DNA of 13,010 bases. Source: a virus. The notes beneath the pieces were generated by a model. The model worked only from the letters and a program-made list of their open reading frames with translations. It was not told the DNA's origin and did no database searches. This document shows, piece by piece, positions 1 to 13,010 of this stretch. The stretch covers positions 1 through 13,010 of the IMG/VR virus record IMGVR_UViG_3300045988_106465; one strand, given 5' to 3'. A program made the position numbers and the translations under genes. Each line of letters starts with the position of its first letter. Position 1 is the stretch's first letter.

Positions 1-79
1 CTCGCCTATTGTATTGACTGATAACCATTTAACAAAGTTCCCCCATTGTTTGCTCCATTCCGAACGTTTTCATGCCAGA

Positions 80-109
80 TTGACAGCGTTTTAACAAGAT
101 ATACATAAT
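80..109 (+). promoter_or_regulatory. ITR-internal sigma70/SigA-like promoter, left copy, pointing inward (antisense to the tailspike gene)
   Basis: TTGACA (80-85), an 18-nt spacer, then CATAAT (104-109). The same sequence occurs on the minus strand at the right end. Confidence 0.35.
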
Positions 110-145
110 GCACAATATAAAACCATCTTCCAGGTATATTTTTGG

Positions 146-163
146 TTGTTTTGCACAAAACAA
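146..163. promoter_or_regulatory. Palindrome TTGTTTTG-CA-CAAAACAA inside the ITR (candidate operator)
   Basis: Two 8-bp perfect inverted arms are separated by 2 bp. It lies downstream of the ITR promoter, and a copy is present in the right ITR. Confidence 0.3.
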
Positions 164-204
164 GAGTTATGGATGAAAAGCTCCTAGATAGATTATACCT
201 TTCG

Positions 205-239
205 AGAACAAACGATTAGAGGACCATTTCTGGCCCTCT
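205..239 (-). terminator. Candidate intrinsic terminator after the last late gene
   Basis: The minus-strand RNA forms AGAGGGCC-AGAAAU-GGUCCUCU, an 8-bp stem with one G-U pair. This hairpin is followed by AAUCGUUUGUUCUC, which is only a weak U tract. It begins 15 nt after the tailspike stop. Confidence 0.4.
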
Positions 240-253
240 GACGGGGTGTGCGG

Positions 254-1627
254 TTAATCTCGTTTCACTCGAACGGTGGCTGTAAGTGCAAAGCTTTTGA
301 CGCCGCTTTCATCGTTTGTATAGAATCGAATCTCGCTGTTGCCTGAGATAGCAAACATGTTAGTATTTGCCGCAGCGTATGCCGCTCCAAGGTATCCCGC
401 ATGATAGGTATATGATATCGGATAAAAGGGTGCTGGAATTTTGGCCACGTTCACATATCCCACTGTATTACCACTGAATGATATTGAACCGTGAATCTCA
501 ACCGTTACCGTGTTATCCTCAATATACATGCGATTACTGTCGATCGTTGCGCCATTTATGGGTGTTACCTCGACATAATAACTTGTTTTTGCGGGGACGT
601 CTATATAGTCGGTGAGTGTCAAGCCGGTTAAGCGGCCCGAAAATTGACCGTCGCATAGTTTGTTTATGTTATGCCCATTTCCCTGTATACCGTTGATATA
701 AACCTTTGTAGTATCTCCGGCGAAAAGTACGCAATTGGGCTTGTTATCATGATAAGCCAGAAGATCATAAACAAACAATAGTTTGCCGTTTGCGACGTTG
801 AAACTGATATCAAAAGTGTCACTTGTGCACGCCGTGAAAATGTTATAACTTTCTTTGATATCGGCAAACTTGGTATTGTTCCAACTGCTGCTTGACGTGT
901 TCCAGCAATGACAAAAACTGATACGGTTATCACCGCCGCTCATATCGAAAATCGTTTGATAGTTTACTGCATAAACTGCATTGAAATGACAATCATACGT
1001 CTGACATTTAACGGCAATATTTCCCAGTGTACCATCACCATTGAACAAAAGCGCTTTGTTTAGCGTGACTTCGTAACCGCTTACAGCATCAATGAAATTT
1101 TTACAATGAATTGAATATACATTGGTAATGAATGTGTTATTGCTGCGTGAAATTTTTATCATAGTTGCAGGCGAATCATTACCATTAAAACAGATTGCGT
1201 TAAAAGATGATTCATAGCCCTTGCTGTCATAGTCAATTACTGGGTTCTGCATGCTTCCAGGGCATTTAAGATACGAATAACCAAAGTCACAATGAACTGG
1301 GCCATTTACTTTAATCGTATCAGTAACATAATATGTTACGCCGAAACTATAAAGCGTTTTTTTGCTGGTAGTAGCTGCTGCAAAAGCCGCTTGGAGTGCT
1401 GCCGTGTCATCCGTCACGCCGTCGCCCTTCGCGCCGAACATTTCCGGCGTCAAGAAGCTATTAGCGACTTCTGCCGGAATAGCGTCAACCTTTTTGGTTA
1501 GCGCGTTATATTTGTTATTCAGTTCGTCGAATTGCGCTTTGAAATCGGCTTGCGATCCTTTAATTTTGCCTAAAATCCAGTCGAGATTGAGATTATGCAA
1601 ATTGGTGTAGGGCCAATCGTTAAACAT
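254..1627 (-). CDS. Tail appendage / tailspike (receptor-binding protein) with a pectate-lyase-like right-handed beta-helix, phi29 gp12-like role
   Basis: 457 aa. The N-terminus carries WPYTNLHNLNLDWILGKIK, an anchor motif common in Firmicute phage fibres, followed by a coiled-coil stretch. FGAKGDGVTDDTAALQAA is the hallmark of Pectate_lyase_3-type beta-helix depolymerases. RBS AAGGGGGT lies upstream of the ATG. It is the last gene of the structural module. Confidence 0.8.
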   Translation of the reverse strand: MFNDWPYTNLHNLNLDWILGKIKGSQADFKAQFDELNNKYNALTKKVDAIPAEVANSFLTPEMFGAKGDGVTDDTAALQAAFAAATTSKKTLYSFGVTYYVTDTIKVNGPVHCDFGYSYLKCPGSMQNPVIDYDSKGYESSFNAICFNGNDSPATMIKISRSNNTFITNVYSIHCKNFIDAVSGYEVTLNKALLFNGDGTLGNIAVKCQTYDCHFNAVYAVNYQTIFDMSGGDNRISFCHCWNTSSSSWNNTKFADIKESYNIFTACTSDTFDISFNVANGKLLFVYDLLAYHDNKPNCVLFAGDTTKVYINGIQGNGHNINKLCDGQFSGRLTGLTLTDYIDVPAKTSYYVEVTPINGATIDSNRMYIEDNTVTVEIHGSISFSGNTVGYVNVAKIPAPFYPISYTYHAGYLGAAYAAANTNMFAISGNSEIRFYTNDESGVKSFALTATVRVKRD

Positions 1628-1641
1628 ATTTTTTACCCCCT

Positions 1642-2346
1642 TTAATATACTCCGATACAGAATGTGTCGATAAACTCATTTGTTATAAGCTTATAAATAT
1701 CATACTGCCGAAGTTTAAGCTCTGCTTCAACCATCTGTTGATTTGTAGTTACGCCGATATTGCCATGAGTATGTATAACAGTATGCCGTGTGTCGCCGCC
1801 CGTGAATCCTTTATTGCGATTGTCGCCGCCCGTGTATCCTTTATTGCGATTATCGCCGCCCGTGTAGCTGCGTGAATCGTCGCTATGATCTTCGCTTCCG
1901 CTGCTATCGGTAAGCTGTAAATCGCTGCTATTGTATCCCGTCCGGCTGTTTTGTATGCTGCCGCTGCTGTTGCTGTTTCCGCTGTCCGTTAGATTGCGGT
2001 TATAATCGTCGCTTTCTTTAAGGTCGCGTGTGTAATCGTCGCTTTCTTTAAGGTCGCGCGTGTAGTCTTCGAGATGATCTTCGTATCTGTCTGTATTTTC
2101 AATTGGGTTATACTCTGCATCGAGTGCCGCAATCATGCGGTTCCATGCCGCAAGCCGTGTCTTGCTCCAATTACCGATCAGTCTGCCCAGTATATCAGCA
2201 TTCGGGAACAGCAATTCCAGCTCCGCCGCCTCCATGATGATATTATCAATCAATGTTTCTCTGTCAACGCTCGTCGGAATAGTGAGCGAGTCAAAAATTG
2301 CTGGCTGATAGTTATACAGCCCCAGAATTGATAGAGTCGCTTCCAC
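1642..2346 (-). CDS. Lower collar / head-tail adaptor protein (phi29 gp11-like)
   Basis: 234 aa with a GTG start 7 nt after GGAGGTG. It lies directly downstream of the portal gene. The middle is S/N/D-rich, and the C-terminal motif GNIGVTTNQQMVEAELKLRQYDIYKLITNEFIDTFCIGVY is one I recognise from Picovirinae lower collar proteins. That recognition is from memory and needs HHpred. Confidence 0.65.
   Translation of the reverse strand: MEATLSILGLYNYQPAIFDSLTIPTSVDRETLIDNIIMEAAELELLFPNADILGRLIGNWSKTRLAAWNRMIAALDAEYNPIENTDRYEDHLEDYTRDLKESDDYTRDLKESDDYNRNLTDSGNSNSSGSIQNSRTGYNSSDLQLTDSSGSEDHSDDSRSYTGGDNRNKGYTGGDNRNKGFTGGDTRHTVIHTHGNIGVTTNQQMVEAELKLRQYDIYKLITNEFIDTFCIGVY
1791..1868. repeat. 30-nt tandem repeat (about 2.6 copies) inside the lower collar gene
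   Basis: Units at 1791-1820 and 1821-1850 differ at one base, and a partial third unit runs to 1868. They encode YTGGDNRNKG / YTGGDNRNKG / FTGGDTRH. Confidence 0.9.
2003..2062. repeat. Second 30-nt tandem repeat (2 copies plus degenerate flanks) inside the lower collar gene
   Basis: Units at 2003-2032 and 2033-2062 differ at one base. They encode DYTRDLKESD twice, followed in the protein by the degenerate DYNRNL. Confidence 0.9.
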
Positions 2347-3226
2347 CGTCTGTCACCTCCACCGCAAAATCAACGCCCAGCAAACCGCGAATGTCAGGGT
2401 ACATCTTCTCACTCTGCGCCATCCCGGCGCGAATCTCGTCAAGCCACATGCGCGCTTTGCTCCGCGTGAACATGTCGCCCCTTGCAATTTCTCCCGTGAT
2501 AAGCCGCTCTTTTTTCTCGGTCTGAACATTTGGGATGCCGATCTCAGCGCGGAAAGCAGCTTGGATTTTTTGCAGCACGTCCAGAACGTCGCCTGCAATA
2601 AAATTTTGCCCGACATTTTGCGTCAGCAGATGCAGCCCGTCGCCCGCTTTGCTGCCCGTGCGCTGGACAACTGCCGGAATACCGCTTGCAATGTTGTCAT
2701 AGAGTTTTTTAATCGTCTCCGCTTGAGCTTTACTGTCTGCTTCGCCGATGTATGACAGATGTGAGTTGAGAATATTCACGGCTGCACACTGCCAGCATAG
2801 AGTCATTAGATCTCCGTATGTGTCCACAATCCCCGCCACGCCCGAATAATCCGGCTGCATTTTGATGAGCGCGCAATCTCGACCGATGGTCAGCGGCCCA
2901 TGCTGCCGGATAAGCGGATTTGCAACGCTTGCTTTGTTGGGTCTGTAAAACACATTTTGACCACCAAGCGAGCAGGACATCGGGATAACGCCGAATCGGT
3001 CAGTGTTTATAACCGCCACAAAACCCACGCCGAGCAGGTTATAGCGGAAAAAATCAGCATCCCACCATTCAGGCAGTGTAAATTTAAACACCGACAAAGC
3101 ATCCTGCAAAAGATAGCGTTTAAAAAATCTCGCAAGCCCGGTATCATGCACATGCAGAAACGAAGGGTGAATCATGCCGTCAACGCTATTAAGCGTGTCG
3201 TAGAAAAAAGGTGGAGTGAATGCCAA
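2312..3226 (-). CDS. Portal / upper collar connector protein (phi29 gp10-like)
   Basis: 304 aa, against 309 aa for phi29 gp10. The motif GIPNVQTEKKERLITGEI matches phi29 gp10 GIKNANLEKKERMVTDEV. The start is TTG, immediately after the upstream stop, with AGGGGG about 9 nt upstream. Confidence 0.85.
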   Translation of the reverse strand: MAFTPPFFYDTLNSVDGMIHPSFLHVHDTGLARFFKRYLLQDALSVFKFTLPEWWDADFFRYNLLGVGFVAVINTDRFGVIPMSCSLGGQNVFYRPNKASVANPLIRQHGPLTIGRDCALIKMQPDYSGVAGIVDTYGDLMTLCWQCAAVNILNSHLSYIGEADSKAQAETIKKLYDNIASGIPAVVQRTGSKAGDGLHLLTQNVGQNFIAGDVLDVLQKIQAAFRAEIGIPNVQTEKKERLITGEIARGDMFTRSKARMWLDEIRAGMAQSEKMYPDIRGLLGVDFAVEVTDGGSDSINSGAV

Positions 3227-3847
3227 TTAAAACAACCCCCTTTTAAATTTGTAGAGCAGCCAAACCGGAATTTTTGACGGATAGGGAGGGAGAACACCGC
3301 CGAAAAACTCATACCATGCCGCCGCCTGTTCGCCGCGACTTCCCGGCCCCTGCGCGCTGCTGCGCTCGTATTGCCAATAGTACGCTTCGGCCAGTGTTCG
3401 CGGATCGTCGGTTGATTTTTTGAATCCCGGCCATGTATAGTTGAATCCCTCATTGCTATACCAATCTTGCCCGGTTGTCGCGCTGTACTCATGGAAGAGC
3501 ATCTGCACATCAATAGCTGATAGCGGGTTGTCATCTGTTGCAGTTGGAGAGATGCCGAGATTTGTCAACGCCCAATCTCCAATTTTGCGTCCCCATGGGG
3601 TCCACTGCGGGAGACCAAAGCCGCCACTGCGTGTTGTCGGAAAATTTGCTGACGTTGGATAATTGGGATTTATGCGACACTCGCTTTCCCAGTTTCCCAG
3701 CATCGCGCAAGCGCTATTGATCGTAAACCCCAGCGCGCCCAGATACGCCGCGAAAACGGTTGCGTTTTGCTCCATCTGTGCGCGGTCCGGGTAGACGCGG
3801 AACGTGTGGAAATAAGATGCAAAATCAGGCGGCTGGATGTCACTCAT
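3227..3847 (-). CDS. Tail-associated peptidoglycan hydrolase (phage tail lysozyme family; functional analogue of phi29 gp13)
   Basis: 206 aa counted from the internal ATG at 3847, which overlaps the tail-knob stop (ATGAGTGA). CAMLGNWESECRINP...GGFGLPQWT resembles the ILGNxxxESGxNP...GxGLxQWT signature of the phage tail lysozyme domain. The longer track ORF (to 4000) overlaps the knob gene and has no RBS. Confidence 0.65.
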   Translation of the reverse strand: MSDIQPPDFASYFHTFRVYPDRAQMEQNATVFAAYLGALGFTINSACAMLGNWESECRINPNYPTSANFPTTRSGGFGLPQWTPWGRKIGDWALTNLGISPTATDDNPLSAIDVQMLFHEYSATTGQDWYSNEGFNYTWPGFKKSTDDPRTLAEAYYWQYERSSAQGPGSRGEQAAAWYEFFGGVLPPYPSKIPVWLLYKFKRGLF

Positions 3848-5291
3848 AGTAAAAGCCCCCGCGCAAAAAAGATATAATTGCATCGTGCTCTTCAGCCGTC
3901 GCCACGACGTGCAACTCCGGGTTTTGACACATGATAAACCCGGATAGGCTCTTGATATTACGCACAGCGCACAATGGCCTTCCAGCTCGTGTGTTGTCAT
4001 TGTCCACCAAGATTGAAAAATCCGCTCTCAAAATAGGTGGTAGCTGATAGGCCGCAATGCTGCCGGACGCTGACAGTGTTTGTACCGTAGGCGTGCTCGT
4101 CGGAACAACCTCATTGATAGCAGCTTGCGCGAAACCGCTTGCAATATTGCCGTAGTTAGACCAGCTTCGCACGCCTGCTTTAACCGCGCCTATAATGCCC
4201 TGTCCCGCTGCCGTGGCAGGTGGAGGCGCCAGAAGCCCGGTAACACCGCTTGCAATACTGTCAAACATGCCCATTGTAACCTGTGATAGCTGGATATCAA
4301 CCCCCACCGATGCAGCAGTTCGCAGAATTTCGCTTGAACCTGCCGAGAAAGTCGAAATGCCGTTACCTGATACACAATCAACCAATGTTGATACAGTGAG
4401 CGCTTTAGCGTCGCCGCGAACGAAAAAATCCGGTGCGATTGCTACATCCCCCCACGGCCCATAGTTATAGGTGAGGCGTGTATAAGGGCTGCCGTTGAGA
4501 TAGCCCCCGCGCGTCGCTGCCTGTGGGTGCTGCGGAACATCCAGCGTCCAAGTGTCTGTGAAAATCGGCGTTTTTGCAAGGCGCTTGCAGTTGACAGGGA
4601 GGGTCCACCATCCTACTTTAATGGACGCTTGCACGTCTCCCTCTGTCGGCGCAACAAAGGGGAACCATTTACAGCTTACAATATATTGAAACGGGTTAAA
4701 CAGTGTTTTGGCAAGCTCGCTTGAAATCTCGCTTGATGGGATCTGCAAATAATCCGTGTTGATAAATAGTGCATCTCTGAGCGCTGCCATGTATGACTGT
4801 GTCAATACATAATAACTCGTTCCGCCACGAGCATTGTCGTCGCCGTTGATAACACCGATCACATAAGTGCCATCAATCAGGTTTGAGGTCCACGGAAAAC
4901 TAGCAACCGTCCGGTCCATTGTAATTCCGGCTTTGACGCTGTAAAATCCATCGGGCACAAATTCATCGTATTCAGACGCCGAGCGCAATACATATTGTGT
5001 TGAATTCCCAATCTCCGTGCGCCAGCTTGCCAGCACGTCAACCGCGCAGTCAGCTATCCACAATCCATCTTGCCACGTCCACGATGCAAAATAGTACCGC
5101 GCCCAAATCGGAATGTGAATATAATTGATCTGTGCTGGTGTCCAGCCGTCCACCATGTGAAAAACAAGAGACGGCGAAAGAATGCTGCAAACGTCTTTGA
5201 GTTCACAGGCATAAGTCACGCCGTTTGCTGGCTTTGGTATGGCTGTGCTGTCTGCCTCTTTTGCAAACGAATACAGGATTACATCAATCAT
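3840..5291 (-). CDS. Tail knob / distal tail tube protein (phi29 gp9-like)
   Basis: 483 aa with RBS AAGGAGA. The C-terminus is GRPLCAVRNIKSLSGFIMCQNPELHVVATAEEHDAIISFLRGGFYYE. It parallels the phi29 gp9 C-terminus GYKINRVKK...[34 protein letters not shown]. A Gly/Ala-rich hydrophobic loop region precedes it, as in gp9. The gene sits right after the MCP, as in phi29. Confidence 0.8.
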   Translation of the reverse strand: MIDVILYSFAKEADSTAIPKPANGVTYACELKDVCSILSPSLVFHMVDGWTPAQINYIHIPIWARYYFASWTWQDGLWIADCAVDVLASWRTEIGNSTQYVLRSASEYDEFVPDGFYSVKAGITMDRTVASFPWTSNLIDGTYVIGVINGDDNARGGTSYYVLTQSYMAALRDALFINTDYLQIPSSEISSELAKTLFNPFQYIVSCKWFPFVAPTEGDVQASIKVGWWTLPVNCKRLAKTPIFTDTWTLDVPQHPQAATRGGYLNGSPYTRLTYNYGPWGDVAIAPDFFVRGDAKALTVSTLVDCVSGNGISTFSAGSSEILRTAASVGVDIQLSQVTMGMFDSIASGVTGLLAPPPATAAGQGIIGAVKAGVRSWSNYGNIASGFAQAAINEVVPTSTPTVQTLSASGSIAAYQLPPILRADFSILVDNDNTRAGRPLCAVRNIKSLSGFIMCQNPELHVVATAEEHDAIISFLRGGFYYE

Positions 5292-5309
5292 CTTTCGCCG
5301 TCTCCTTTA

Positions 5310-6497
5310 TTAGTCGAGCAGGAACACAACGCCGTTTTCGGTCGTGTCGTTCCACCACCGATTGATAAAATGGTGGAATGCGTTGTAATAACGCGATTTT
5401 GCGTTAATGGGGGTCATCGTCATCCCCTCATTGATCATGTCATAGCCCATCGCGTCGCGGTCATAGAGCACAGCAAGGATATTGCTCTGCTGTACAGCCT
5501 TGCCCTTTTCATGCGCGCCCGTGCTGGTGATCTGTGCAGGTGTGATGTTGATTTTATCCGGCGCGTTGATGTTCTGCCAGAACAACACCGTTTCATGCGG
5601 AATCACATCAACAAAATTGGTGTGCCACGTGTCAGGCAAAACGATACCGCCCATCTCGCGCATAAAGTCGCTCAGGATGAGCGCTCTCTGCATGCTCTTC
5701 GGCGTATGCCGGATGATGGTCGCGCCGTCAATGCTCTTATGATAGAGCGTCGTGCGCTCCTGCATCCGATCGCTTGCTTTCACAAGTTCCACGCAAAGCC
5801 AAAGGACGAAGGGTTTGAAATTCTCCGGCTTGTAGATATCTTGCGCAGTCAGCGTCAAGCCCGTGAGCGTGTTGTATTCCGCGAGCATGTGGCGCACATT
5901 TGCGGCGTCCGTGTTAATCTTCGCGCCAATCATATTGGCGATGGTTCCGCGCGCCAGATTCTCCCGCTGCTGCTCCACCTCGTCGAGCACAAACTGCCGC
6001 TGCATCGCGAGGAACTGAGAGAGTTCATCCGGCCCGCGGAATGCTGCCTTGAGCTGGTATTCAAAAACTGTCGGTTCCTGCACTGCCCACTGAACAGCGC
6101 TTGTAAAATTGAGCTGCAACGCCTTCGGGCGCTTTACGGTCCACTGGTCGGCGCTGGTGCCGTCGGCAGGTGCGCTCGTATATTCCGGGTTGTCTTGCGC
6201 GCTGTCAATACCGAGCGGCGTGATTTTGCGAGTTTGAAAGCCCCAATCAAGGCTGTTACCCTCAAGGATTTTGAAGCGGCCAGTGTATGGCCGATTGACA
6301 AAAATCGAACGGTTAATAACCGTTGAAATGCTGGTCATGATGGGGTCAGTGCCCACAGACAGGCCACTTTCGGCCATTGCGACAAACTGCGACATATCGC
6401 GCGGCGCTGCGCTGATATCAGCCGTTCGGCCCTGCGCGTCTGCCACGATCTGGTTCAGGATCGTGGCAATTTGTGCGAATGTGTAACCAGTTGCCAT
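5310..6497 (-). CDS. Major capsid protein (phi29 gp8-like HK97 fold, no Ig-like C-terminal domain)
   Basis: 395 aa with RBS GGAGGTG 8 nt upstream. The C-terminal block LAVLYDRDAMGYDMINEGMTMTPINAKSRYYNAFHHFINRWW parallels phi29 gp8 [36 protein letters not shown]. It follows the scaffold-position gene with a 1-nt TAATG overlap. Confidence 0.88.
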   Translation of the reverse strand: MATGYTFAQIATILNQIVADAQGRTADISAAPRDMSQFVAMAESGLSVGTDPIMTSISTVINRSIFVNRPYTGRFKILEGNSLDWGFQTRKITPLGIDSAQDNPEYTSAPADGTSADQWTVKRPKALQLNFTSAVQWAVQEPTVFEYQLKAAFRGPDELSQFLAMQRQFVLDEVEQQRENLARGTIANMIGAKINTDAANVRHMLAEYNTLTGLTLTAQDIYKPENFKPFVLWLCVELVKASDRMQERTTLYHKSIDGATIIRHTPKSMQRALILSDFMREMGGIVLPDTWHTNFVDVIPHETVLFWQNINAPDKINITPAQITSTGAHEKGKAVQQSNILAVLYDRDAMGYDMINEGMTMTPINAKSRYYNAFHHFINRWWNDTTENGVVFLLD

Positions 6498-6865
6498 TAC
6501 GATTTCACCTCCATAGCGTAATCATTGGCGGCGAGAATTTCAGCCGCGTCTACTGACTGCGGCGCGCCGCCCATGTTATTGATGTTGTTTGCGCGGAACA
6601 TGCCGAGCATTTCACGCAAAAGCTGCACCGTCTCGCTTTCCTGCTGCGGCTGCTGCGGTCCCGGCTGCTGTACCTGCTGCGGCTGCGGTTCCGGCTGCGG
6701 CTGCTGCGGTCCCGGCTGCTGTACCTGCTGCGGCTGCGGTTCCGGCTGCGGCTGCGGTTCCGGTCCCGGCTGCTGTACCTGCTGCGGCTGCGGCTGCATC
6801 ATGGCAAGAATTTCTTCTCGGCTCCATCCTGCTCGATGTAGATCGAGCACATCTTGCATCGTCAT
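6497..6865 (-). CDS. Putative scaffolding protein with an internal Pro/Gln-rich tandem repeat
   Basis: 122 aa with RBS AAGGAGG. It lies immediately upstream of, and translationally coupled to, the MCP, which is the phi29 gp7 position. Helical-looking N- and C-terminal segments flank QQVQQPGP(E/Q)(P/Q)PQPEPQP repeats. No homology was recognised. Confidence 0.55.
   Translation of the reverse strand: MTMQDVLDLHRAGWSREEILAMMQPQPQQVQQPGPEPQPQPEPQPQQVQQPGPQQPQPEPQPQQVQQPGPQQPQQESETVQLLREMLGMFRANNINNMGGAPQSVDAAEILAANDYAMEVKS
6641..6796. repeat. Coding tandem repeat, 51-54-nt unit, about 3 copies (GC-rich CTGCGG/CTGCTG array)
   Basis: Units at 6648-6698 and 6699-6749 are identical. A third, rearranged copy has the core GGTCCCGGCTGCTGTACCTGCTGCGGCTGCGG at 6762-6793. 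Confidence 0.9.
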
Positions 6866-6996
6866 TCTGTCGCAACCTCCTTGATCGCATGCATCGAAAT
6901 AGTTGTCTGTACATCCGGCGAGAGTTTGAGCTTTTGCTGCGCAATGCTGCCGCCGCTGTCCTTGTATGTGATGAGTACATAAGTATTCACCGCCAT
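6862..6996 (-). CDS. Hypothetical 44-aa protein (below the ORF-track size cutoff)
   Basis: The product is MAVNTYVLITYKDSGGSIAQQKLKLSPDVQTTISMHAIKEVATE. The ATG at 6996 is preceded by GGGGGGTG 6 nt upstream. Its stop overlaps the scaffold start as ATGA. It exactly fills the gap between the endolysin and the scaffold. Confidence 0.5.
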   Translation of the reverse strand: MAVNTYVLITYKDSGGSIAQQKLKLSPDVQTTISMHAIKEVATE

Positions 6997-6999
6997 CTG

Positions 7000-7485
7000 T
7001 TACACCCCCCGTCTGATAACTTCCACCATTCGCTCAAGCAAATCTGCGATTTCAAGCCGCGCATCTGCGCCGTCTCCGTTGCTCTCTTCGCCGTAGTCCA
7101 CATCAATACATTTTGCATGATGTGTCCATCCGCTGATGGCCCCCATCTGCACGCCGCCCGTTGTACTGTGGATTACTTCGCCGTTGCCGCAATAGATGCC
7201 CACATGGTAGGCGTTGCCCATCTCATCATGATAGCCGCGCGGAATTTCACCGCCGTCACGCGAGACCTTGAACACCCATTCACCAGGCTGAATCGTGCTC
7301 ATATCGTCCGAGCGATCATAGACAGCATCGCGCCACATCTGATTACTTCCCCGCCAATTTTTGGAGAGCGCATTGCAGTCTTTGAGCACCTGTTCAACAA
7401 ACGCCTGACAATCAAGCTGCTCATAAGGCGTACCCAGATAGCCGCCAGTGAGAGCACGATCTACATAAGCATCAGCTTTCACCAT
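7000..7485 (-). CDS. NlpC/P60-family cell wall peptidase (endolysin)
   Basis: 161 aa counted from the ATG at 7485. The catalytic Cys context is LDCQAFVEQV and the His context is YHVGIYCGNGEVIHST, both typical of NlpC/P60. It follows the holin directly. No separate cell-wall-binding domain is evident. Confidence 0.8.
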   Translation of the reverse strand: MVKADAYVDRALTGGYLGTPYEQLDCQAFVEQVLKDCNALSKNWRGSNQMWRDAVYDRSDDMSTIQPGEWVFKVSRDGGEIPRGYHDEMGNAYHVGIYCGNGEVIHSTTGGVQMGAISGWTHHAKCIDVDYGEESNGDGADARLEIADLLERMVEVIRRGV

Positions 7486-7675
7486 CGCCAATTCTGAGCA
7501 CCTCCAAGATTCGGCTGAGCGCTTGCGTGTTGTTGTTAAGCGCATCGGTCATTTTGCTGACTTCTTCCTTGTGTGCATCGTCGCTGAGCCGTCGATCATA
7601 GAGCAGATAGCAGCAGATTGCAATGGGGAACCCCATTTGCTGAACAAACTGGACAAAAGTCTGCCAAAATTCCAT
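7472..7675 (-). CDS. Holin, BhlA/UviB-like (single N-terminal TM plus charged coiled C-terminus)
   Basis: 67 aa counted from the ATG at 7675, with GGAGGTG 5 nt upstream. The sequence is MEFWQTFVQFVQQMGFPIAICCYLLYDRRLSDDAHKEEVSKMTDALNNNTQALSRILEVL. It has one hydrophobic segment followed by a polar helix, and it lies upstream of the endolysin. The 112-aa track ORF extension covers the promoter/hairpin region and is not credited. Confidence 0.7.
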   Translation of the reverse strand: MEFWQTFVQFVQQMGFPIAICCYLLYDRRLSDDAHKEEVSKMTDALNNNTQALSRILEVLRIGDGES

Positions 7676-7687
7676 GGTAACACCTCC

Positions 7688-7775
7688 ATAATAAAAATCA
7701 GTCAACCATTTTTGTGCGGATGCCTCGCGCGCCCCGCCCCTTCTGGGGGCTGCATGTGGGAAATGGTTGACTGTT
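7688..7775 (-). ncRNA. Candidate about 85-nt structured small RNA / attenuator (promoter-proximal terminal helix, GC-rich core, U tract)
   Basis: A 13-bp perfect inverted repeat is formed by 7761-7773 and 7699-7711 (CAGUCAACCAUUU ... AAAUGGUUGACUG on the minus-strand RNA). It encloses 49 nt containing a GCCCC-CAGAA-GGGGC hairpin, an AUGC/GCAU helix and an unpaired GCGCGC. The 3' arm is followed by AUUUUUAUUAU. The predicted +1 of the upstream promoter falls 1-2 nt before the 5' arm. Confidence 0.45.
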
Positions 7776-7781
7776 GATATC

Positions 7782-7810
7782 ATTATATTCTGTTGTTGGA
7801 AAATTTGCAA
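7782..7810 (-). promoter_or_regulatory. Near-consensus SigA/sigma70 promoter (late/lysis operon and/or small RNA)
   Basis: On the minus strand: TTGCAA (7810-7805), a 17-nt spacer, then TATAAT (7787-7782). It begins 15 nt downstream of the ATPase stop codon. Confidence 0.65.
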
Positions 7811-7824
7811 TATATATTATAGTA

Positions 7825-8871
7825 TCATATCATGCCCAAATAACCACGGAAAATAAGCTCTGTATCGTAACTATCAAACGTCAAATAGTTTTCAAAATAT
7901 AGCGTTTTCATTAGCCCATAACGCTTGCGCCATTGCTCAAGGCCAAACCCCTGCGGGTCATATGCGCGCGTTTTCTGCGCGGCCCGGCAAATATAAAATT
8001 CCCGGCGCGATTTGTGGCGATACATGCCTATTGTACCAATCGTGCAAAGATAGTCAAACTCGATCAATGGCCGAGATGCAACCCTCGTCGGGTCCACATA
8101 AAACGCGTTGTTTATGGCCATTTCAATAAAATCCTGCGGCGCGTTTTTGTATAGCCCGGTCTGCATTTTCCGTCGGCTTATTGGACTATCTTGCAATATA
8201 ATCATTGCCCGGCTCCCGTCAGGCGTGCGAAAGATCATCTGTTTACCGCGAATCATTTTAATGGCCGTGCTCATAAAATCCCAACCAATATAATAGGGAT
8301 TAGCTAGCTGATTAGCATTGCCCAACAACAACGCTTTCACAGGTGCAAGGCCCTGCAATTCGCGGTTGCGGTTTACCGTTTCATAAAAATCCAAAAATGC
8401 CGTGAACTCGTTTGCAAGCGTCCGCTCCGTCGTCAGCGGAATATACTCATCAAAAACGATGGTATCAAACCCAGAAAAATCCATACCGCGAACATTTGCC
8501 AATGCTGACAAACTTGTACCCACGCCGAGTAGACAGCCATCCGGCGCGATTTTCCCACGCTTATTCTGTGCGGCCTCGTAAAACGCGACCATATCAGCGG
8601 ACAGGGAAAACGCCTGCACATTCCAGCCCATATCCTTGTTGAGTCGTGCGAAGGGGTTGCCCACAGGTGTTCGCGCTTTCAAGATCTGCGTGCCCCAGCG
8701 GCGCAACCACACAAATTTTCCGCCGCCATTGCGTGCAGTTTCAACCGCACGCTTTGCGACTCCATACGTTTTACCCGTGCCGCGCGACGACGTGACAGTC
8801 ACAAAATTAGACGCGCTATCCCAAATATAATCAATATTTGGATATCCATTATCAAGATACAACTTTCCCAT
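7825..8871 (-). CDS. DNA encapsidation (packaging) ATPase, phi29 gp16-like
   Basis: 348 aa counted from the ATG at 8871, with GGAGGG 8 nt upstream. Walker A is SSRGTGKTYG, against phi29 GARGIGKSY. FVWLRRW matches FIYVRRY. Walker B is DTIVFDEYIP, against STIVFDEFI. VNRNRELQG...LGNANQLANPYY matches VFRNRERVR...LSNAVSVVNPYF. Confidence 0.9.
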   Translation of the reverse strand: MGKLYLDNGYPNIDYIWDSASNFVTVTSSRGTGKTYGVAKRAVETARNGGGKFVWLRRWGTQILKARTPVGNPFARLNKDMGWNVQAFSLSADMVAFYEAAQNKRGKIAPDGCLLGVGTSLSALANVRGMDFSGFDTIVFDEYIPLTTERTLANEFTAFLDFYETVNRNRELQGLAPVKALLLGNANQLANPYYIGWDFMSTAIKMIRGKQMIFRTPDGSRAMIILQDSPISRRKMQTGLYKNAPQDFIEMAINNAFYVDPTRVASRPLIEFDYLCTIGTIGMYRHKSRREFYICRAAQKTRAYDPQGFGLEQWRKRYGLMKTLYFENYLTFDSYDTELIFRGYLGMI

Positions 8872-11032
8872 TTTGTTTAGCCCTCCAACTCCCAAACAGG
8901 TTGATTTTTGTAAGCAGCCTCTCATAATCCTCAGAATGTGACATTGTATAACTATTCGGTATCAACGCCACATTACGGGTAATGTGTAGATCGCGCCCAT
9001 CCACTTTAATCCAAAAATCCGCGCTGTCATTGTAAACTGATATGCTGCCAGCCGCCAGCGTCCAGACCATACCGCCATCCCGCACTCGTCGGCCTTTTTC
9101 ATCCCTTTTATAACGCCCGGCTGCATCTTGCGCATATCGTCCGGGTTTAAATGCGGACAACCCGCCAGCCTCTTTAAGCTCAAGCGCGCCCAGCGTCAAG
9201 CCTGCTGATTTGACTTTTTTCGTGCTAACACCTGAGACAGTCACACCAAGTTTACCTTCACGTTCATACGCATATCGTTTCGCCCCCTGCGTGATAAATC
9301 GGTCATAGCCATCCTCCTTGTCAAAAACGCCCATATAATACACCTTGCCATTACGATCATGTGCGAATGCTCCACAGCGTTTCGCGCGATCAACCAAGCG
9401 TGCATTCAGATGAGACAAATCAATAGGCGCATCTGTTTTAACGCTGTCTGTGTCATTATAGACAATGTTGTCTCCCGCGATCTGTATTGCCTCATGCAGC
9501 GCATAGCGCGCCCAAGCAGTCGTGTATACTCCCCACTGATAGGGGAAATATGCTTTTTCAAGCGCCTGCCGTTTTTCCTCGTCTGTTTTATGCACTGCTT
9601 GATAGTCGCCGTCAATAAATTGTATTGACTCGCGTATCGGGTCTTGCGCACTCATGCCATAGATACCATTCAATTTGTTCTTTGATTTCATATACTGATA
9701 TTGGCGCTCGTCCGCTTCATCTTCTGTTTCGCCGTCAGGGCCGTTTTTCAGCATTGTCTTATCCTGATAATATTTATCGATTACATCAAGATACTGTTTG
9801 GGCAGTGGCCCCTTGCGCGCAATCATTGCTTCTTCACATGCGATTTTATCCGCGGAATATTGGCGCATGACAATCGCCAGGTCGATTTCAGTTAAAGCGG
9901 TTGTGCAAAGATCTGCTGACAGCAAGCGGCCATTGTCAACCACAAAAGCGCTGCTTTGCGTTTTTGACAGCGACAAATAGGGCACTGGTTCCCGCTCATT
10001 GCGCAAGCGCAAGCCGGAAAACACATAACGCCCGACAACCGCGCGCCCATGCCGAATATAATCAATAATATTCGCCATTTGTAAATCTTCACCGCTGAGC
10101 CAGCGAAAGGGGGTTATCGGAAAATTTCTCGTTCGCTGCTGGGCCGGATATGCCGACGTTTCATCATATGATTCGACATTTTCAAGGATTTTGCCAACTT
10201 TATAGCGATTCGCATGCGTATCGCCGCCGCGAAACGCCGCTCGAAGCAGCGCATATTCCCGTTGATAGGGGAGAATTGATTCGATCTTCCATCTAATCGG
10301 CCACAGCGCCGCTTTAGCGTCTCGCCTGACATACCCAGTAGACGTGAGGGGCAACGTGTGGAGTGTATCTCCATCGCGTTTCATTTCCGTCTTGATCGCC
10401 TCCACAAGGCCCAATACATCGTTAATACAGTATTGCGTCTCATAGTCGGTCAAATCAGACCAAGGATAGCGCACAATATCATAATCAAAAGAGTCGCCGT
10501 CAAGCTTGCGATGCTCGCATTTCATAATTTCCGTAAATTTTGAAAGACTCATATTGCTATGCATGTAGCTGCATCGAAATTCAATACAGCCCAGCATGCG
10601 CGCATATATCGGCTTCCGAGCCTCGCGCAGAAACACTTCTTCCGGCTGGAATGGATAAAGCCCTGCCAGAAATTGGAATTCATACGCCAGATTGTGAACA
10701 AACATTACAAGATAAGGTTTTGTGTCAAGATTGTTCGATTCCTGTAAAGCCGCGCACATTTCATCAACGCGAGCAAGAAACGTGAAAAACTCATCCCAAT
10801 AGCGGCCCATGATAACATCTGAGTTTATTGCAACCTGCCACACATACATAAAAGCATGCGGCTCATCCTCGCCGTTCTCCATGCGATGTACAACCGACGT
10901 TTCGATATCAAAAGCCGCCACCACGTTGACATATTCCACTCGCTGACTTTTTGCACGCTTTCCGCGTTTTCGCGCTGCTATGCCGCTCTCATAGATACGC
11001 TCAAATGGGTAAGTCTCTGCCGTGTATATCAA
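8852..11032 (-). CDS. Protein-primed family-B DNA polymerase
   Basis: 726 aa. Exo I is FDIETS, Exo II is HNLAYEFQF and Exo III is YCINDVLGL. Motif A is SYDETSAYPAQ (phi29 DVNSLYPAQ). Motif B is KNKLNGIYGMSAQ. Motif C is VYNDTDSVK. The KxY motif is GAKRYAY. The start is TTG, overlapping the upstream stop as TTGA; the next in-frame Met lies after Exo I, so the TTG start is required. Confidence 0.92.
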   Translation of the reverse strand: MIYTAETYPFERIYESGIAARKRGKRAKSQRVEYVNVVAAFDIETSVVHRMENGEDEPHAFMYVWQVAINSDVIMGRYWDEFFTFLARVDEMCAALQESNNLDTKPYLVMFVHNLAYEFQFLAGLYPFQPEEVFLREARKPIYARMLGCIEFRCSYMHSNMSLSKFTEIMKCEHRKLDGDSFDYDIVRYPWSDLTDYETQYCINDVLGLVEAIKTEMKRDGDTLHTLPLTSTGYVRRDAKAALWPIRWKIESILPYQREYALLRAAFRGGDTHANRYKVGKILENVESYDETSAYPAQQRTRNFPITPFRWLSGEDLQMANIIDYIRHGRAVVGRYVFSGLRLRNEREPVPYLSLSKTQSSAFVVDNGRLLSADLCTTALTEIDLAIVMRQYSADKIACEEAMIARKGPLPKQYLDVIDKYYQDKTMLKNGPDGETEDEADERQYQYMKSKNKLNGIYGMSAQDPIRESIQFIDGDYQAVHKTDEEKRQALEKAYFPYQWGVYTTAWARYALHEAIQIAGDNIVYNDTDSVKTDAPIDLSHLNARLVDRAKRCGAFAHDRNGKVYYMGVFDKEDGYDRFITQGAKRYAYEREGKLGVTVSGVSTKKVKSAGLTLGALELKEAGGLSAFKPGRYAQDAAGRYKRDEKGRRVRDGGMVWTLAAGSISVYNDSADFWIKVDGRDLHITRNVALIPNSYTMSHSEDYERLLTKINLFGSWRAKQNGKVVS

Positions 11033-11721
11033 CGCCGAGCCTCGTTATCAAAAAATTCCATAGCCGCATCATAGAGCGGCCCCAGCTCGCCTTCTGTTGA
11101 CGGCTCATTGTCAAGAGCGGATAAGGCTGCTTCGATTTCCTGCTCGCGATCTGCAAGGTAATCTTGCATATCTGCAAGGACATCTTTCACAGATGCACCC
11201 TCGCGCATCTGGTCGGCCATGCGTCGCACTTCATCGCGGAATTTGTAGATGCTATAATCCTGTTTTGCGCTATCCAAAAAATGGATATAGTCCATCCAAT
11301 CCCGGACATTTGTGGGATTGATAGCGCTCTGCATATCAGACGGCAACCAATCGCGCACACCATCAACAAAGTTTTTGGTTTTCTCATCGCGCCAAAAAGA
11401 TTTGGCGGCTTTTCTGCGCAGTTCACGCTCTTTTGCGCGCCTTGTAAGTTCTCGGACACGATTATTATAATCCCTGATATACGTGTCTCGCTGCCTCTGT
11501 CTTTCCAGTTCACGCGCGCCAGACACTGTTGTGTCCTTACGCGCCGCCAAACGTTTCAGACGTGCAAGCGAGTTCCTGAGGTCTCGCGCGGTTTTAATAT
11601 CAGCCAAGCGCTCCCCCGCGTCCAGGGGATTGAATCCAGCAGACACAAGACGTCTGCTGCGATCTTGTAATAACTTTCTGAGACGGCGATATTCTGCGCG
11701 GGTTTTTTCACTGCCAACCAT
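11029..11721 (-). CDS. Putative terminal protein (replication primer protein)
   Basis: 230 aa with RBS AAGGAGG. It lies immediately upstream of, and overlaps, the polymerase, which is the phi29 gene 3 / gene 2 arrangement. The N-terminal two thirds are strongly basic and coiled-coil-like. The C-terminal third is acidic (DVLADMQDYLADREQEIEAALSALDNEPSTEGELGPLYDAAMEFFDNE). No sequence homology was recognised, so the call rests on synteny and composition. Confidence 0.5.
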   Translation of the reverse strand: MVGSEKTRAEYRRLRKLLQDRSRRLVSAGFNPLDAGERLADIKTARDLRNSLARLKRLAARKDTTVSGARELERQRQRDTYIRDYNNRVRELTRRAKERELRRKAAKSFWRDEKTKNFVDGVRDWLPSDMQSAINPTNVRDWMDYIHFLDSAKQDYSIYKFRDEVRRMADQMREGASVKDVLADMQDYLADREQEIEAALSALDNEPSTEGELGPLYDAAMEFFDNEARR

Positions 11722-11733
11722 GATACGACCTCC

Positions 11734-11763
11734 TTAAAAATGTGGCGGCCTCATAGGCCGCCA
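11734..11763 (-). terminator. Intrinsic terminator / attenuator between ssb and the terminal-protein gene
   Basis: The minus-strand RNA forms UGGCGGCC-UAUGA-GGCCGCCA, an 8-bp stem with 7 GC pairs. It is followed by CAUUUUUAA and then the AAGGAGG RBS of the next gene. Confidence 0.7.
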
Positions 11764-11768
11764 TAATA

Positions 11769-12125
11769 TCAACGTTTGCGTCTGTGTTGTGATGTGGGCT
11801 GCGTATCAGACGGCGAGCGCGACATAAAATCAAACGTTTCCACATTGACTTCATGCGTATTCACACGGCAACCATCACTATCAGTAAAGGTATAAAGCCG
11901 AATTGAACCGCACAGCGCAAGCTTGTCTCCTTTATGGCAATACTTACCAATCAGTTCAGCCGCGCCACCCCATGCCGTGCAGTGAAAAAAATCAGCCTGG
12001 TCATCTTTTTGCCGACCTGGCACGGCAATCGTGAATTTTGCCAGTGTGCGAGTTTCGTCTTTAACGTTCACTTCGCGGATTTCAGGATCAGCCATAAAAC
12101 GACCTACGATATAAAGCTTATTCAT
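11769..12125 (-). CDS. ssb: Single-stranded DNA-binding protein (OB-fold SSB)
   Basis: 118 aa. MNKLYIVGRFMADPEIREV...LAKFTIAV...DFFHCTAWGGAAELIGKYCHKGDKLALCGSIRLYTF matches the bacterial/phage SSB pattern (MNxVxLxGRLxxDPExR...FxLAV...FxxCxxWxxxAExxxxYxxKGxxVxVxGxL). The RBS is GGAGGTAGAAC, and the start overlaps the RHH stop (ATGAATAA). Confidence 0.85.
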   Translation of the reverse strand: MNKLYIVGRFMADPEIREVNVKDETRTLAKFTIAVPGRQKDDQADFFHCTAWGGAAELIGKYCHKGDKLALCGSIRLYTFTDSDGCRVNTHEVNVETFDFMSRSPSDTQPTSQHRRKR

Positions 12126-12288
12126 GTTCTACCTCCATGCGCTTCGCGCGTCTATCTTTTTCATTGTAATAGCGGTTTATAATCATTGTGAGCAGGGCTG
12201 ACCGACTGATTCGTCGTTTCTCTGCATCCGTGGTCAGGCGCTCCAAGAGCGCAGTATCTATTGTCACCGTTGCGGCTGACTTTCTCAT
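12118..12288 (-). CDS. Ribbon-helix-helix (Arc/CopG/MetJ-type) DNA-binding protein, likely transcriptional regulator
   Basis: 56 aa counted from the ATG at 12288, with GGGAGGTG 6 nt upstream. The sequence is MRKSAATVTIDTALLERLTTDAEKRRISRSALLTMIINRYY. This is the classic beta-strand (VTID) plus two-helix RHH pattern. Confidence 0.75.
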   Translation of the reverse strand: MRKSAATVTIDTALLERLTTDAEKRRISRSALLTMIINRYYNEKDRRAKRMEVEHE

Positions 12289-12520
12289 AATAAACACCTC
12301 CCGCATAAATCAGACCTTGGTAAGTGCCGCGTAGCTCTTGCCCGTCCATCGTTTGGAACGTGCACCGCCCATTGATGAACGGCAGAACATCGCCCAGAAT
12401 GTGCCATTCAGGGCGGCCGCCGGAAGGCTCCTGAATGTCTGCGCTGTACGCTTCATGCCCAAGCGCCCGGAATGCTTTGCACACTTCCTGGCTTTCTTCA
12501 CATGCGACTAAAACAAGCAT
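12161..12520 (-). CDS. N-terminal fragment of a phage methyltransferase-like family, with a tail overprinting the RHH gene (possibly a gene remnant)
   Basis: 119 aa counted from the ATG at 12520, with GGAGGTG 5 nt upstream. MLVLVACEESQEVCKAFRALGHEAYSADIQEPSGGRPEWHILGDVLPFINGRCTFQTMDGQE resembles, from memory, the N-terminus of about 200-aa phage proteins usually annotated as DNA cytosine methyltransferase. In those proteins this region is followed by WDLxIAxPPC. Here similarity stops at about residue 62-65, and the remaining residues are read out of frame across the RHH gene. Confidence 0.4.
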   Translation of the reverse strand: MLVLVACEESQEVCKAFRALGHEAYSADIQEPSGGRPEWHILGDVLPFINGRCTFQTMDGQELRGTYQGLIYAGGVYYEKVSRNGDNRYCALGAPDHGCRETTNQSVSPAHNDYKPLLQ

Positions 12521-12522
12521 TT

Positions 12523-12734
12523 TCACACCTCCACAAATTCCAAATCCCAACCACGGCCATACATGGCAAAGATCATATCTTCGGCCTGTTCACGCGTTGC
12601 AGCGTATTCGTCATTGGTCTCTTCCTCATCAGTTGCTTGGACATAGTAAGTGATAGCGCCCGTCTTTTCATCCCACAGGATATCAATTAACGTGGGGACA
12701 AAAAAATTTCGTTGTAGATCGTAGCGATTTTCAT
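12523..12734 (-). CDS. First early gene: about 70-aa strongly acidic protein, frame interrupted at a T7 run (-1 frameshift or homopolymer error)
   Basis: The ATG at 12734 has AGAGAGG 8 nt upstream. Frame 0 gives MKIATIYNEIFLSPR and stops at 12687. The -1 frame stays open from the T7 run (plus-strand A7, 12700-12706) to a TGA at 12523. It encodes VPTLIDILWDEKTGAITYYVQATDEEETNDEYAATREQAEDMIFAMYGRGWDLEFVEV, has no start codon of its own, and ends on the RBS of the next gene. Confidence 0.55.
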
Positions 12735-12798
12735 TTTGATTACCTCTCTTTCATTCGATAAAACCCGCGCCCGGAGGCCATCCCTTCGGAACAACTAT

Positions 12799-12827
12799 AT
12801 TATACCAGATTATAGTGTAATGGGCAA
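12799..12827 (-). promoter_or_regulatory. Early promoter in unique sequence just inside the right ITR (extended -10)
   Basis: On the minus strand: TTGCCC (12827-12822), a 17-nt spacer, then TGgTATAAT (TG at 12807-12806, TATAAT at 12804-12799). A second TATAAT lies at 12814-12809. Confidence 0.55.
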
Positions 12828-12847
12828 TAGCTTTTCATCCATAACTC

Positions 12848-12865
12848 TTGTTTTGTGCAAAACAA
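12848..12865. promoter_or_regulatory. Right-ITR copy of the TTGTTTTG-N2-CAAAACAA palindrome (candidate operator between the two early promoters)
   Basis: This is the mirror copy of 146-163. It lies between the ITR promoter and the unique early promoter. Confidence 0.3.
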
Positions 12866-12901
12866 CCAAAAATATACCTGGAAGATGGTTTTATATTGTG
12901 C

Positions 12902-12931
12902 ATTATGTATATCTTGTTAAAACGCTGTCAA
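12902..12931 (-). promoter_or_regulatory. ITR-internal promoter, right copy, co-directional with all genes
   Basis: On the minus strand: TTGACA, an 18-nt spacer, then CATAAT. This is the mirror of 80-109. Confidence 0.4.
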
Positions 12932-13010
12932 TCTGGCATGAAAACGTTCGGAATGGAGCAAACAATGGGGGAACTTTGTTAAATGGTTATCAGTCAATAC
13001 AATAGGCGAG

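Follow-up and report, generated by a model that had tools for sequence, protein, structure and literature searches.

Background and overview

A 2024 review distinguished about 30 clusters of phi29-like phages, with many genomes of 12-15 kb from the human gut, and in it Amedibacillus phage AD70P2 is set apart from the Clostridium Guelinviridae by clustering of major capsid proteins (MCPs) and terminases (PMC11476376). Prohead RNA (pRNA), an RNA component of the phi29 packaging motor, is known only for the Bacillus phi29 group and defines that group rather than the broad one (PMC5066667, PMC11476376). Here we analyse a stretch of 13,010 nucleotides, positions 1 to 13,010 of IMG/VR virus record IMGVR_UViG_3300045988_106465 (hereafter the window, at its full length). 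We consider it very probable that the window is the complete linear double-stranded DNA genome of an uncultured, virulent phi29-like podophage of the human gut, in which a conserved structured RNA would serve as a cis-acting leader. The RNA family, more than the genome itself, is the part that deserves follow-up. Relatives used for comparison are denoted by L numbers.

A complete phi29-type genome bounded by long inverted repeats

The window is bounded by an inverted terminal repeat (ITR), the two arms of which are:

1..182: left ITR, with an inward-facing sigma-70-like site, TTGACA-N18-CATAAT, at 80-109 on the plus strand
12829..13010: right ITR, with the same promoter-like site at 12931-12902 on the minus strand, facing the early genes

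An earlier note on this DNA, made from its letters, had described a perfect 182-bp repeat at both ends, and this is what we find: the arms are 100% complementary, and the repeat is seen at both ends across independent assemblies (L002, L005, L018 and L020). Two of the relatives, L017 and L018, start 3 nt inside the first base of the window (at about position 4), L001 reaches to 6 nt from the outer end, and the ends of independent assemblies agree with those of the window to within 3 nt. The window is a complete linear genome, or complete save a few terminal nucleotides, the exact end bases not being fixable from assemblies. Some details of the termini weigh against this reading: the window begins CTCGCC, without terminal reiteration, and L017 and L018 begin CCC.

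The phi29-type core is backed by both Pfam and PHROGs (DNA_pol_B_2/phrog_1907, Podovirus_Gp16, Phi29_MCP, Phage_connector and Phage_lysozyme2), and PF05894, PF05352 and PF25622, the set covering ATPase, connector and MCP, all exceed their gathering cut-offs. Together with the reproduced termini, this core bears out the reading of the window as an ITR-bounded podophage of the protein-primed phi29 type, a group characterized by linear genomes with inverted terminal repeats. Every open reading frame (ORF) with family support lies on the minus strand, coding density is 94%, GC content is 48.9% and GC skew on the plus strand is negative throughout, as expected for a single coding direction. The earlier description of about 19 genes on one strand is thus right as to the strand and wrong as to the count, which comes to 16 protein genes, one frameshifted early ORF and one methyltransferase fragment. 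Two long plus-strand ORFs (5070-6326 and 6589-7497) were rejected as antisense artefacts; they have no family match and lie opposite the MCP gene and the scaffold and endolysin genes, respectively. A tRNA scan of the window returned none.

The promoter-like site within the ITR has 11 of 12 consensus matches, and two more -10/-35 matches lie next to the right ITR at 12838-12799. The left-end copy of the site aims inward, antisense to the tailspike gene, and no plus-strand terminator follows it (80-109); it could drive antisense transcription, or else be silent and owe its presence to ITR homogenization.

Free genome, integrated element or assembly artefact

An independent human-gut contig of 12,900 bp carries identical MCP, single-stranded DNA-binding protein (SSB) and tailspike and is 100% identical to window positions 56-12955. 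A single contig tells against a free-standing genome. In L001 (ENA ERZ19634338 k119_90741, 45,872 bp), the phage is fused to Bacteroidota DNA at L001 3544/3545, a junction that corresponds to phage position 7, 6 nt from the phage end, and the bacterial side encodes the C-terminus of IleS, DksA, LspA, DUF4296 and TamL. This contig, which was reported in two samples (L001/L006), and the Bacteroidales host suggested for one related metagenome-assembled genome (MAG; PMC11476376) would fit an element that integrates, or has integrated, in a Bacteroidota host, either a prophage or a casposon- or polinton-like element with terminal inverted repeats, of which the 13-kb contig would be an excised or partly assembled form. 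We hold this to be very improbable. Integration at the junction would truncate the essential ileS, of which the last ~100 of ~1030 residues are left, and when metagenomes were scanned for 24 nt of the bacterial side of the junction, all 23 native contigs recovered had an intact ileS and none contained ITR sequence. The two sides share at most 1 nt of microhomology where they join, and the window encodes no integrase, transposase or recombinase detectable with Pfam or PHROGs. The junction also coincides with a free DNA end, and we conclude that L001 is a chimera and not a prophage.

Wider sampling agrees with a free genome: in the protein database, IMG/VR and GTDB genomes, relatives of the family-B DNA polymerase (PolB) of the window are confined to contigs no longer than about 15.5 kb, L001 being the sole exception. 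The lysis cassette (BhlA-type holin, NlpC/P60 endopeptidase and no spanin found) looks Gram-positive, which argues against integration into a Bacteroidota chromosome. An integrating element would be expected to have an integrase or transposase and to be flanked by chromosome at both ends; the only junction recorded is one-sided and lies inside ileS. The earlier note had named contigs running past both ITRs into bacterial DNA as evidence that would overturn a free genome, and what exists is one contig, extending past one ITR, and chimeric. Chimeras of this kind call for caution when prophages and hosts are assigned from such contigs.

Could the 182-bp ITR and the 13.0-kb length instead be products of assembly, through a fold-back or a k-mer artefact on an incomplete or circular genome? 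Public contigs of the clade do contain such products: terminal inverted repeats of exactly 55 nt, resembling k-mer artefacts, occur in L019, L057, L063, L081 and L139, L019 in addition folds back on itself internally over 55 nt, L020 has been misjoined through its ITR, and of the ITR just 127 nt, a length equal to its k, are present in the MEGAHIT copy L002. Against this, the ITR boundary is the same among assemblers and samples, with L016 stopping right at it, L005, L018 and L020 extend 30-146 nt into the ITR at the tailspike end, and L017, L018 and L001 come within 3-6 nt of the outer end. Furthermore, 182 is not a usual k value, ITR lengths among relatives are many and different, and the gene set is complete. 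An artefactual origin thus appears highly unlikely for the window, although the 55-nt repeats and fold-back joins in public contigs mean that catalogue ITR lengths for this clade should be treated with care.

A species-level addition to an abundant gut clade

A nucleotide search against deposited phages gave no match, so the close identity to an already classified genus that the earlier note had considered as a counter-argument was not encountered, and protein identities to GenBank phage records reach 36-40% at best. The novelty claimed in that note does not survive comparison with metagenomic catalogues. IMG/VR holds at least 555 PolB relatives, mostly on contigs of 11-14.6 kb, PolB homologues as a whole number in the thousands, and five IMG/VR contigs (L016-L020) whose PolB is 96-97% identical (92-96% in nucleotides) belong to the same species as the window; the 2024 review had also catalogued such genomes (PMC11476376). 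Nor is 13.0 kb unusually small for a phi29-like phage, as had been suggested, given that genomes of 10.4-14.6 kb are common and include cultured phages of 10.4-12.3 kb: Amedibacillus AD70P2 and AD70P3 (12.2-12.3 kb), astrithr-like phages (11.2-11.9 kb) and Vibrio phage K58 g2 (10.4 kb). The three differences from phi29 that had been singled out (ITR length, single transcription direction and regulator set) are real and, at the same time, the norm for the clade, whose members have perfect ITRs of 28-277 bp; the ITR of Clostridium phage HM2 is about 170 bp. By sequence comparison, then, the genome is a species-level addition to an abundant, already catalogued gut clade in which a one-strand layout and long ITRs are normal and which, with genomes of 11-15 kb, takes in the cultured AD70P2 and AD70P3. 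Its value lies in taxonomy and in providing a minimal-genome reference from among the smallest tailed phages; as a genome it is not surprising.

PolB is 31-35% identical to its counterparts in HM2 and AD70P2, and a tblastn search of HM2 detected nothing else except a weak tailspike match. Separately, the assembly of an actinobacterial isolate, Herbiconiux daphne CPCC 203386 (L048, L050 and L062) contains several short contigs with a related PolB (about 32% identity), which could be a phi29-like phage or element in that culture.

A conserved structured RNA at the head of the lysis and late genes

Between the ATPase gene and the lysis genes lie two elements:

7782..7810, minus strand: promoter-like site (TTGCAA-N17-TATAAT) with which the lysis/late operon opens
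7699..7773, minus strand: conserved structured RNA of 75 nt, between the ATPase stop and late promoter on one side and the holin gene on the other

Downstream of the late promoter, the RNA is followed by a U-run (about 7689-7698) and the Shine-Dalgarno (SD) sequence of the holin gene. Its predicted fold, with a minimum free energy of -37 kcal/mol (z = -2.8), consists of a 13-bp closing stem (P1) round a three-way junction, a helix P2, a hairpin P2a (7736-7750, with an NGAA loop) and a hairpin P3 (7716-7730), and base pairs link a bulge (AUGC) to the loop of P3 (GCAU).

A covariance model seeded with 35 sequences matches the window RNA at 46 bits (E 3e-10) and finds exactly one copy, invariably on the coding strand, in each of 69 of the 76 IMG/VR relatives L065-L140, with further matches in several MAG contigs, including genomes outside the seed set and genomes with an extra gene between the RNA and the ATPase gene. 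Homologues of 72-75 nt are also present in L009, L017-L022, L024, L027, L028, L030, L031 and L063, and the same architecture is retained in relatives whose ATPase is 29-47% identical. Across 67 distinct sequences, 89.7% of the cells are paired, compared with 52% after shuffling and 31-46% when partners are slid; each of the 25 pairs shows changes on both sides, and G-U pairs occur only in the sense orientation. The bulge-loop interaction, which was not part of the model, is paired in 77% of cases, with four pair types at two positions.

Comparison of close relatives shows selection on the element. The RNA of L063 is 92% identical to that of the window, against a genome background of 76% in nucleotides and a PolB identity of 87%, and four of its six differences make up two fully compensatory stem pairs; L017 shows a compensatory change in the inner hairpin and has kept its promoter hexamers while the spacer diverged. 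No copy was found by the covariance model in phi29, AD70P2, astrithr or HM2, and an Rfam cmscan of the window (4227 families, E<=1) returned two chance matches elsewhere and none for the RNA element or for pRNA. Comparative evidence thus supports a robust RNA family, with covariation in every helix, that is absent from Rfam and apparently undescribed.

Leader or packaging RNA

The position of the element is nearly invariant: a -10 box lies 2-10 nt upstream and the holin gene 10-45 nt downstream in nearly all genomes (by eye, the holin of L135 may belong to a different family). What follows the fold is variable. A U-run comes directly after P1 in about a third of members, and one subgroup has a separate terminator hairpin, so that one or the other is present in nearly half. 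Shortly before the SD, 18 of the 67 carry a stretch complementary to P2a that covaries with it in the examples inspected. A simple intrinsic terminator at 7699-7773 was considered and rejected, as L022, L028 and the L104 group have no U-run and keep the fold.

Because the gene link is fixed and the downstream 'platforms' vary, we favour a cis-regulatory leader, and lean slightly towards an attenuator, a riboswitch-like element or a put-like leader controlling entry into the lysis/late operon. The 75-nt RNA would then govern elongation or termination into that operon, by attenuation, in a riboswitch-like manner or as a put-like antiterminator. Two observations sit uneasily with such a leader: not all members have a terminator, and the P2a-complementary stretch of those 18 members is missing from the window itself.

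Established leaders offer parallels; for these we take as references the HK022 put RNAs, riboswitch and attenuator leaders and the lambda PR'-tR' 6S arrangement. Like promoter-proximal leaders, the window RNA immediately follows a promoter and heads a long late operon whose first genes are those for lysis, and like regulatory leaders it is compact (about 72 nt) and multi-helical, with variable terminator-like or SD-proximal elements downstream. It differs from put RNA in its fold, P1-P2-P2a-P3 with bulge-loop pairing.

The fold also invites comparison with pRNA, for which we used the described features of the phi29 molecule (PMC5066667). As a miniature pRNA, the molecules would assemble into a ring on the connector by pairing bulge to loop with one another, and would dock the gp16-type ATPase. 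The topology is indeed the same: the 5' and 3' ends pair in a helix, there is a three-way junction, a bulge loop precedes a terminal hairpin, and the loop of a second hairpin complements the bulge, with covariation between the two. These phages possess a gp16-type ATPase and a gp10-type connector, which use pRNA in phi29, their genomes carry one copy of the RNA and no other pRNA candidate, and in the window the RNA has its own promoter and a U-run that would yield a transcript of about 85 nt. Nevertheless, we regard a packaging role as rather unlikely. The element always precedes the holin gene by 10-45 nt, even where an extra gene separates it from the ATPase gene (L021, L031 and others); about half of the members have no terminator, so that the RNA would be a 5' untranslated region; and the downstream features vary like expression platforms, as is typical of cis-regulators. 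At about 72 nt, it is also about 40% shorter than the minimal pRNA (117-120 nt), does not match the Rfam pRNA model and does not occur in AD70P2, astrithr or HM2 despite the same motor proteins.

Either function would be of interest. A true pRNA would be the first outside the Bacillus phi29 group and would make RNA-dependent packaging motors widespread in small protein-primed phages. A leader would represent a compact, experimentally tractable lysis-timing switch in phages with almost no regulatory proteins; it could belong to a new RNA class, riboswitch-like or put-like, that sets when the holin and late genes are expressed, and hence when lysis occurs.

Replication genes

Two genes upstream of the ATPase gene are central to the presumed mode of replication:

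8852..11032, minus strand: protein-primed family-B DNA polymerase (PolB; DNA_pol_B_2, PF03175; phrog_1907, E 1e-53)
11029..11721, minus strand: candidate terminal protein (TP), 230 aa, all-helical, proposed from position and size; its stop overlaps the PolB start

The phi29 polymerase is the sole PDB match of PolB, and motifs A, B and C align (DxxSxYP-, Kx3NxxYG- and YxDTDS-type). In the family alignment, ExoI D42/E44, ExoIII Y201/D205 and K585/Y587 (KxY) are invariant, and ExoII has an invariant acidic residue, E118, where phi29 has D.

The TP candidate lies at the site of the TP gene in phi29-like phages and evolves fast: only 9 homologues were found in a set of 5.8 billion proteins, and 9 in an exhaustive search. 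Their alignment contains an N-terminal EY..LR..RL..AGF motif, a TV.GAR motif and two invariant tyrosines, Y145 and Y159. With the family profile, hhalign gives a match at 89% probability (E 2e-6) to astrithr gp02, over its N-terminal domain, a protein treated as the counterpart of p3 (PMC11476376), and the AlphaFold2 model of the candidate is helical with a mean predicted confidence (pLDDT) of 79, an earlier model at pLDDT 63 having been set aside. Weighing against the assignment, comparison with phi29 p3 by profile or fold was not significant. The same holds for a profile comparison with the positional analogue in AD70P2 and for Foldseek searches of PDB and BFVD, in which 2ex3_B ranked second at E 7.6. 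Considering the polymerase type, the ITRs and the TP candidate together, we infer replication by protein priming.

Packaging, lysis and virion genes

Downstream of PolB, in order of transcription, the window encodes:

7825..8871, minus strand: gp16-type DNA packaging ATPase (Podovirus_Gp16, E 2e-12; phrog_2150, E 1e-28), with its likely start at 8871 and the ORF open from 8925
7472..7675, minus strand: BhlA-like holin, 67 aa, with one transmembrane segment (phrog_4898 holin)
7000..7491, minus strand: NlpC/P60 endopeptidase endolysin (Pfam NLPC_P60, E 1e-6), with its likely start at 7485 or 7491
6862..6996, minus strand: 44-aa ORF, its position kept in close relatives
6497..6865, minus strand: PQ-repeat protein, directly upstream of the MCP gene and scaffold-like by position alone
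5310..6497, minus strand: MCP of the phi29 type (Pfam Phi29_MCP, E 2e-14)
3840..5291, minus strand: virion protein of 483 aa (g483), conserved and syntenic across the clade
3227..3847, minus strand: tail-associated lysozyme with a phi29 gp13-like domain (Pfam Phage_lysozyme2, E 3e-19)
2312..3226, minus strand: portal or upper collar connector, phi29 gp10-like (Phage_connector, E 2e-8; phrog_2038, E 5e-12)
1642..2346, minus strand: lower collar protein, phi29 gp11-like, 234 aa (clade profile against gp11, hhalign probability 85%, E 7e-6)
254..1627, minus strand: tailspike or receptor-binding protein built on a beta-helix of the pectate-lyase type (12 PHROG tail-spike families; Pfam Pect-lyase_RHGA_epim and End_N_terminal)
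218..239, minus strand: terminator-like hairpin at the end of the late operon

The best phi29 match of g483 is gp9, at a weak level (hhalign E 0.003, clade profile), and synteny suggests that g483 is probably the counterpart of this tail knob protein. Repeats mark two of the virion genes. The PQ-rich tandem repeat at 6629-6812 has an 18-aa unit and a copy number that varies among isolates; L001, with a 54-nt deletion in this gene, has one unit fewer than the window. The centre of the lower collar gene carries 30-nt tandem repeats (1782-1871 and 1980-2039; families D4 and D10) that encode the 10-aa units DYTRDLKESD and YTGGDNRNKG. At the same site L097 and L088 have other, longer repeat arrays, and the lower-collar insert is therefore hypervariable.

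Early region

Between the right ITR and the replication genes are the following features:

12523..12734, minus strand: first early ORF, broken by a 5-nt insertion that gives a T7 run (12696-12710)
12161..12520, minus strand: methyltransferase-like N-terminal fragment, ~47 aa (phrog_757 positions 15-61 of 247, E 3e-10)
12118..12288, minus strand: ribbon-helix-helix (RHH; CopG/Arc-like) transcription regulator, 56 aa (Pfam RHH_1, 21.6 bits; PHROG repressor families)
11769..12125, minus strand: SSB with a bacterial-type OB-fold (Pfam SSB, E 3.5e-19; phrog_44, E 5e-25)
11743..11763, minus strand: terminator-like hairpin and U-run, between the SSB gene and the replication genes

The RHH regulator proposed in the earlier note scores above the Pfam cut-off (20.5 bits). 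The first early ORF reads as a 15-aa stub in the window and is unbroken (68 aa) in L017 and L018, whose PolB is that of the same species. The 5-nt insertion is shared by the window, L001 and L002, three independent assemblies of the strain, and a -1 slip on U_UUU_UUG, ribosomal or transcriptional, would give back a protein of 70 aa; the broken ORF may reflect either programmed frameshifting or a pseudogene. The methyltransferase fragment belongs to a cassette of ~200 nt (about 12326-12523) that replaces an unrelated 64-aa ORF of L017 and L018, and its ORF continues out of frame over the RHH gene. It is probably a remnant, and the cassette looks like a recombination scar in the early region. 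The early leader at 12530-12800 was also tried as a structured RNA and discarded, showing no excess stability (z = +1.3).

Host and proposed infection cycle

The lysis cassette, comprising a BhlA-type holin with a single transmembrane segment, an NlpC/P60 endolysin, a tail lysozyme and no spanin detected in the window, together with the cultured relative that infects Bacillota, points to a Gram-positive gut anaerobe as host. MAG bins that contain relatives contradict one another, spanning Clostridia, Bacteroidales, Gastranaerophilales and even Alphaproteobacteria, and because these bins cover unrelated phyla, binning is unreliable for host assignment here.

Read as a programme, the gene order suggests the following cycle. 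The candidate TP (11029-11721) would prime the phi29-type PolB at both 182-bp ITR ends, assisted by the bacterial-type SSB. Transcription would run in one direction, with promoters in and beside the right ITR serving the early genes (RHH regulator, SSB, TP, PolB and ATPase) and the promoter at 7782-7810 serving those for holin, endolysin, scaffold-like protein, MCP, tail knob, tail lysozyme, portal, lower collar and tailspike. The gp16-type ATPase would finally package unit-length DNA via the gp10-type connector.

Comparison with known phages

With Bacillus phage phi29 (Salasmaviridae), the window shares protein-primed PolB motifs, a gp16 ATPase, an MCP of the Phi29_MCP type with the HK97 fold, a gp10 connector, a gp11 lower collar, a gp13-type tail lysozyme and a beta-helix appendage. 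PolB identity between the two is about 26%. By contrast, phi29 has a 19.3-kb genome, 6-bp ITRs, divergent early and late transcription, p4/p6 regulators, an SSB (p5) with a fold of its own and a 174-nt pRNA, of which the window has no Rfam match. The Astrithrvirus-like phages (astrithr, DU_PP_III and Phanie) resemble the window in being small, in having short ITRs and in their homologous PolB, MCP and ATPase, and their TP-like protein shares an N-terminal domain with the TP candidate (hhalign E 2e-6). They differ in that the portal gene precedes the MCP gene, in a small divergent gene block, in their Gram-negative hosts, in lacking the leader RNA and in protein identities of 24-33%.

Closer in organization are AD70P2 and AD70P3, filed under Guelinviridae in GenBank, which like the window combine a small genome with a near-identical gene order: 14 of their 15 genes lie on one strand, a TP-like gene sits directly upstream of PolB and a 55-bp ITR is present at the termini. 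PolB, ATPase, MCP, g483, portal and lower collar are homologous between these phages and the window, although identities are 22-35%, GC content is 27% compared with 49%, early genes and tail fibre differ and the covariance model did not find the leader RNA. The divergence is of genus level or deeper. The nearest counterparts are uncultured human-gut genomes (IMG/VR uncultivated virus genomes; MT836263 and MT835998; virus sp. ctxAI8 in PMC11476376), which belong to the same clade and share with the window its synteny, the leader RNA, a size of 11-14.6 kb and ITRs of 28-277 bp. From these gut relatives, the window strain is set apart by its frameshifted first early ORF, its swapped methyltransferase cassette and one PQ unit more than in L001.

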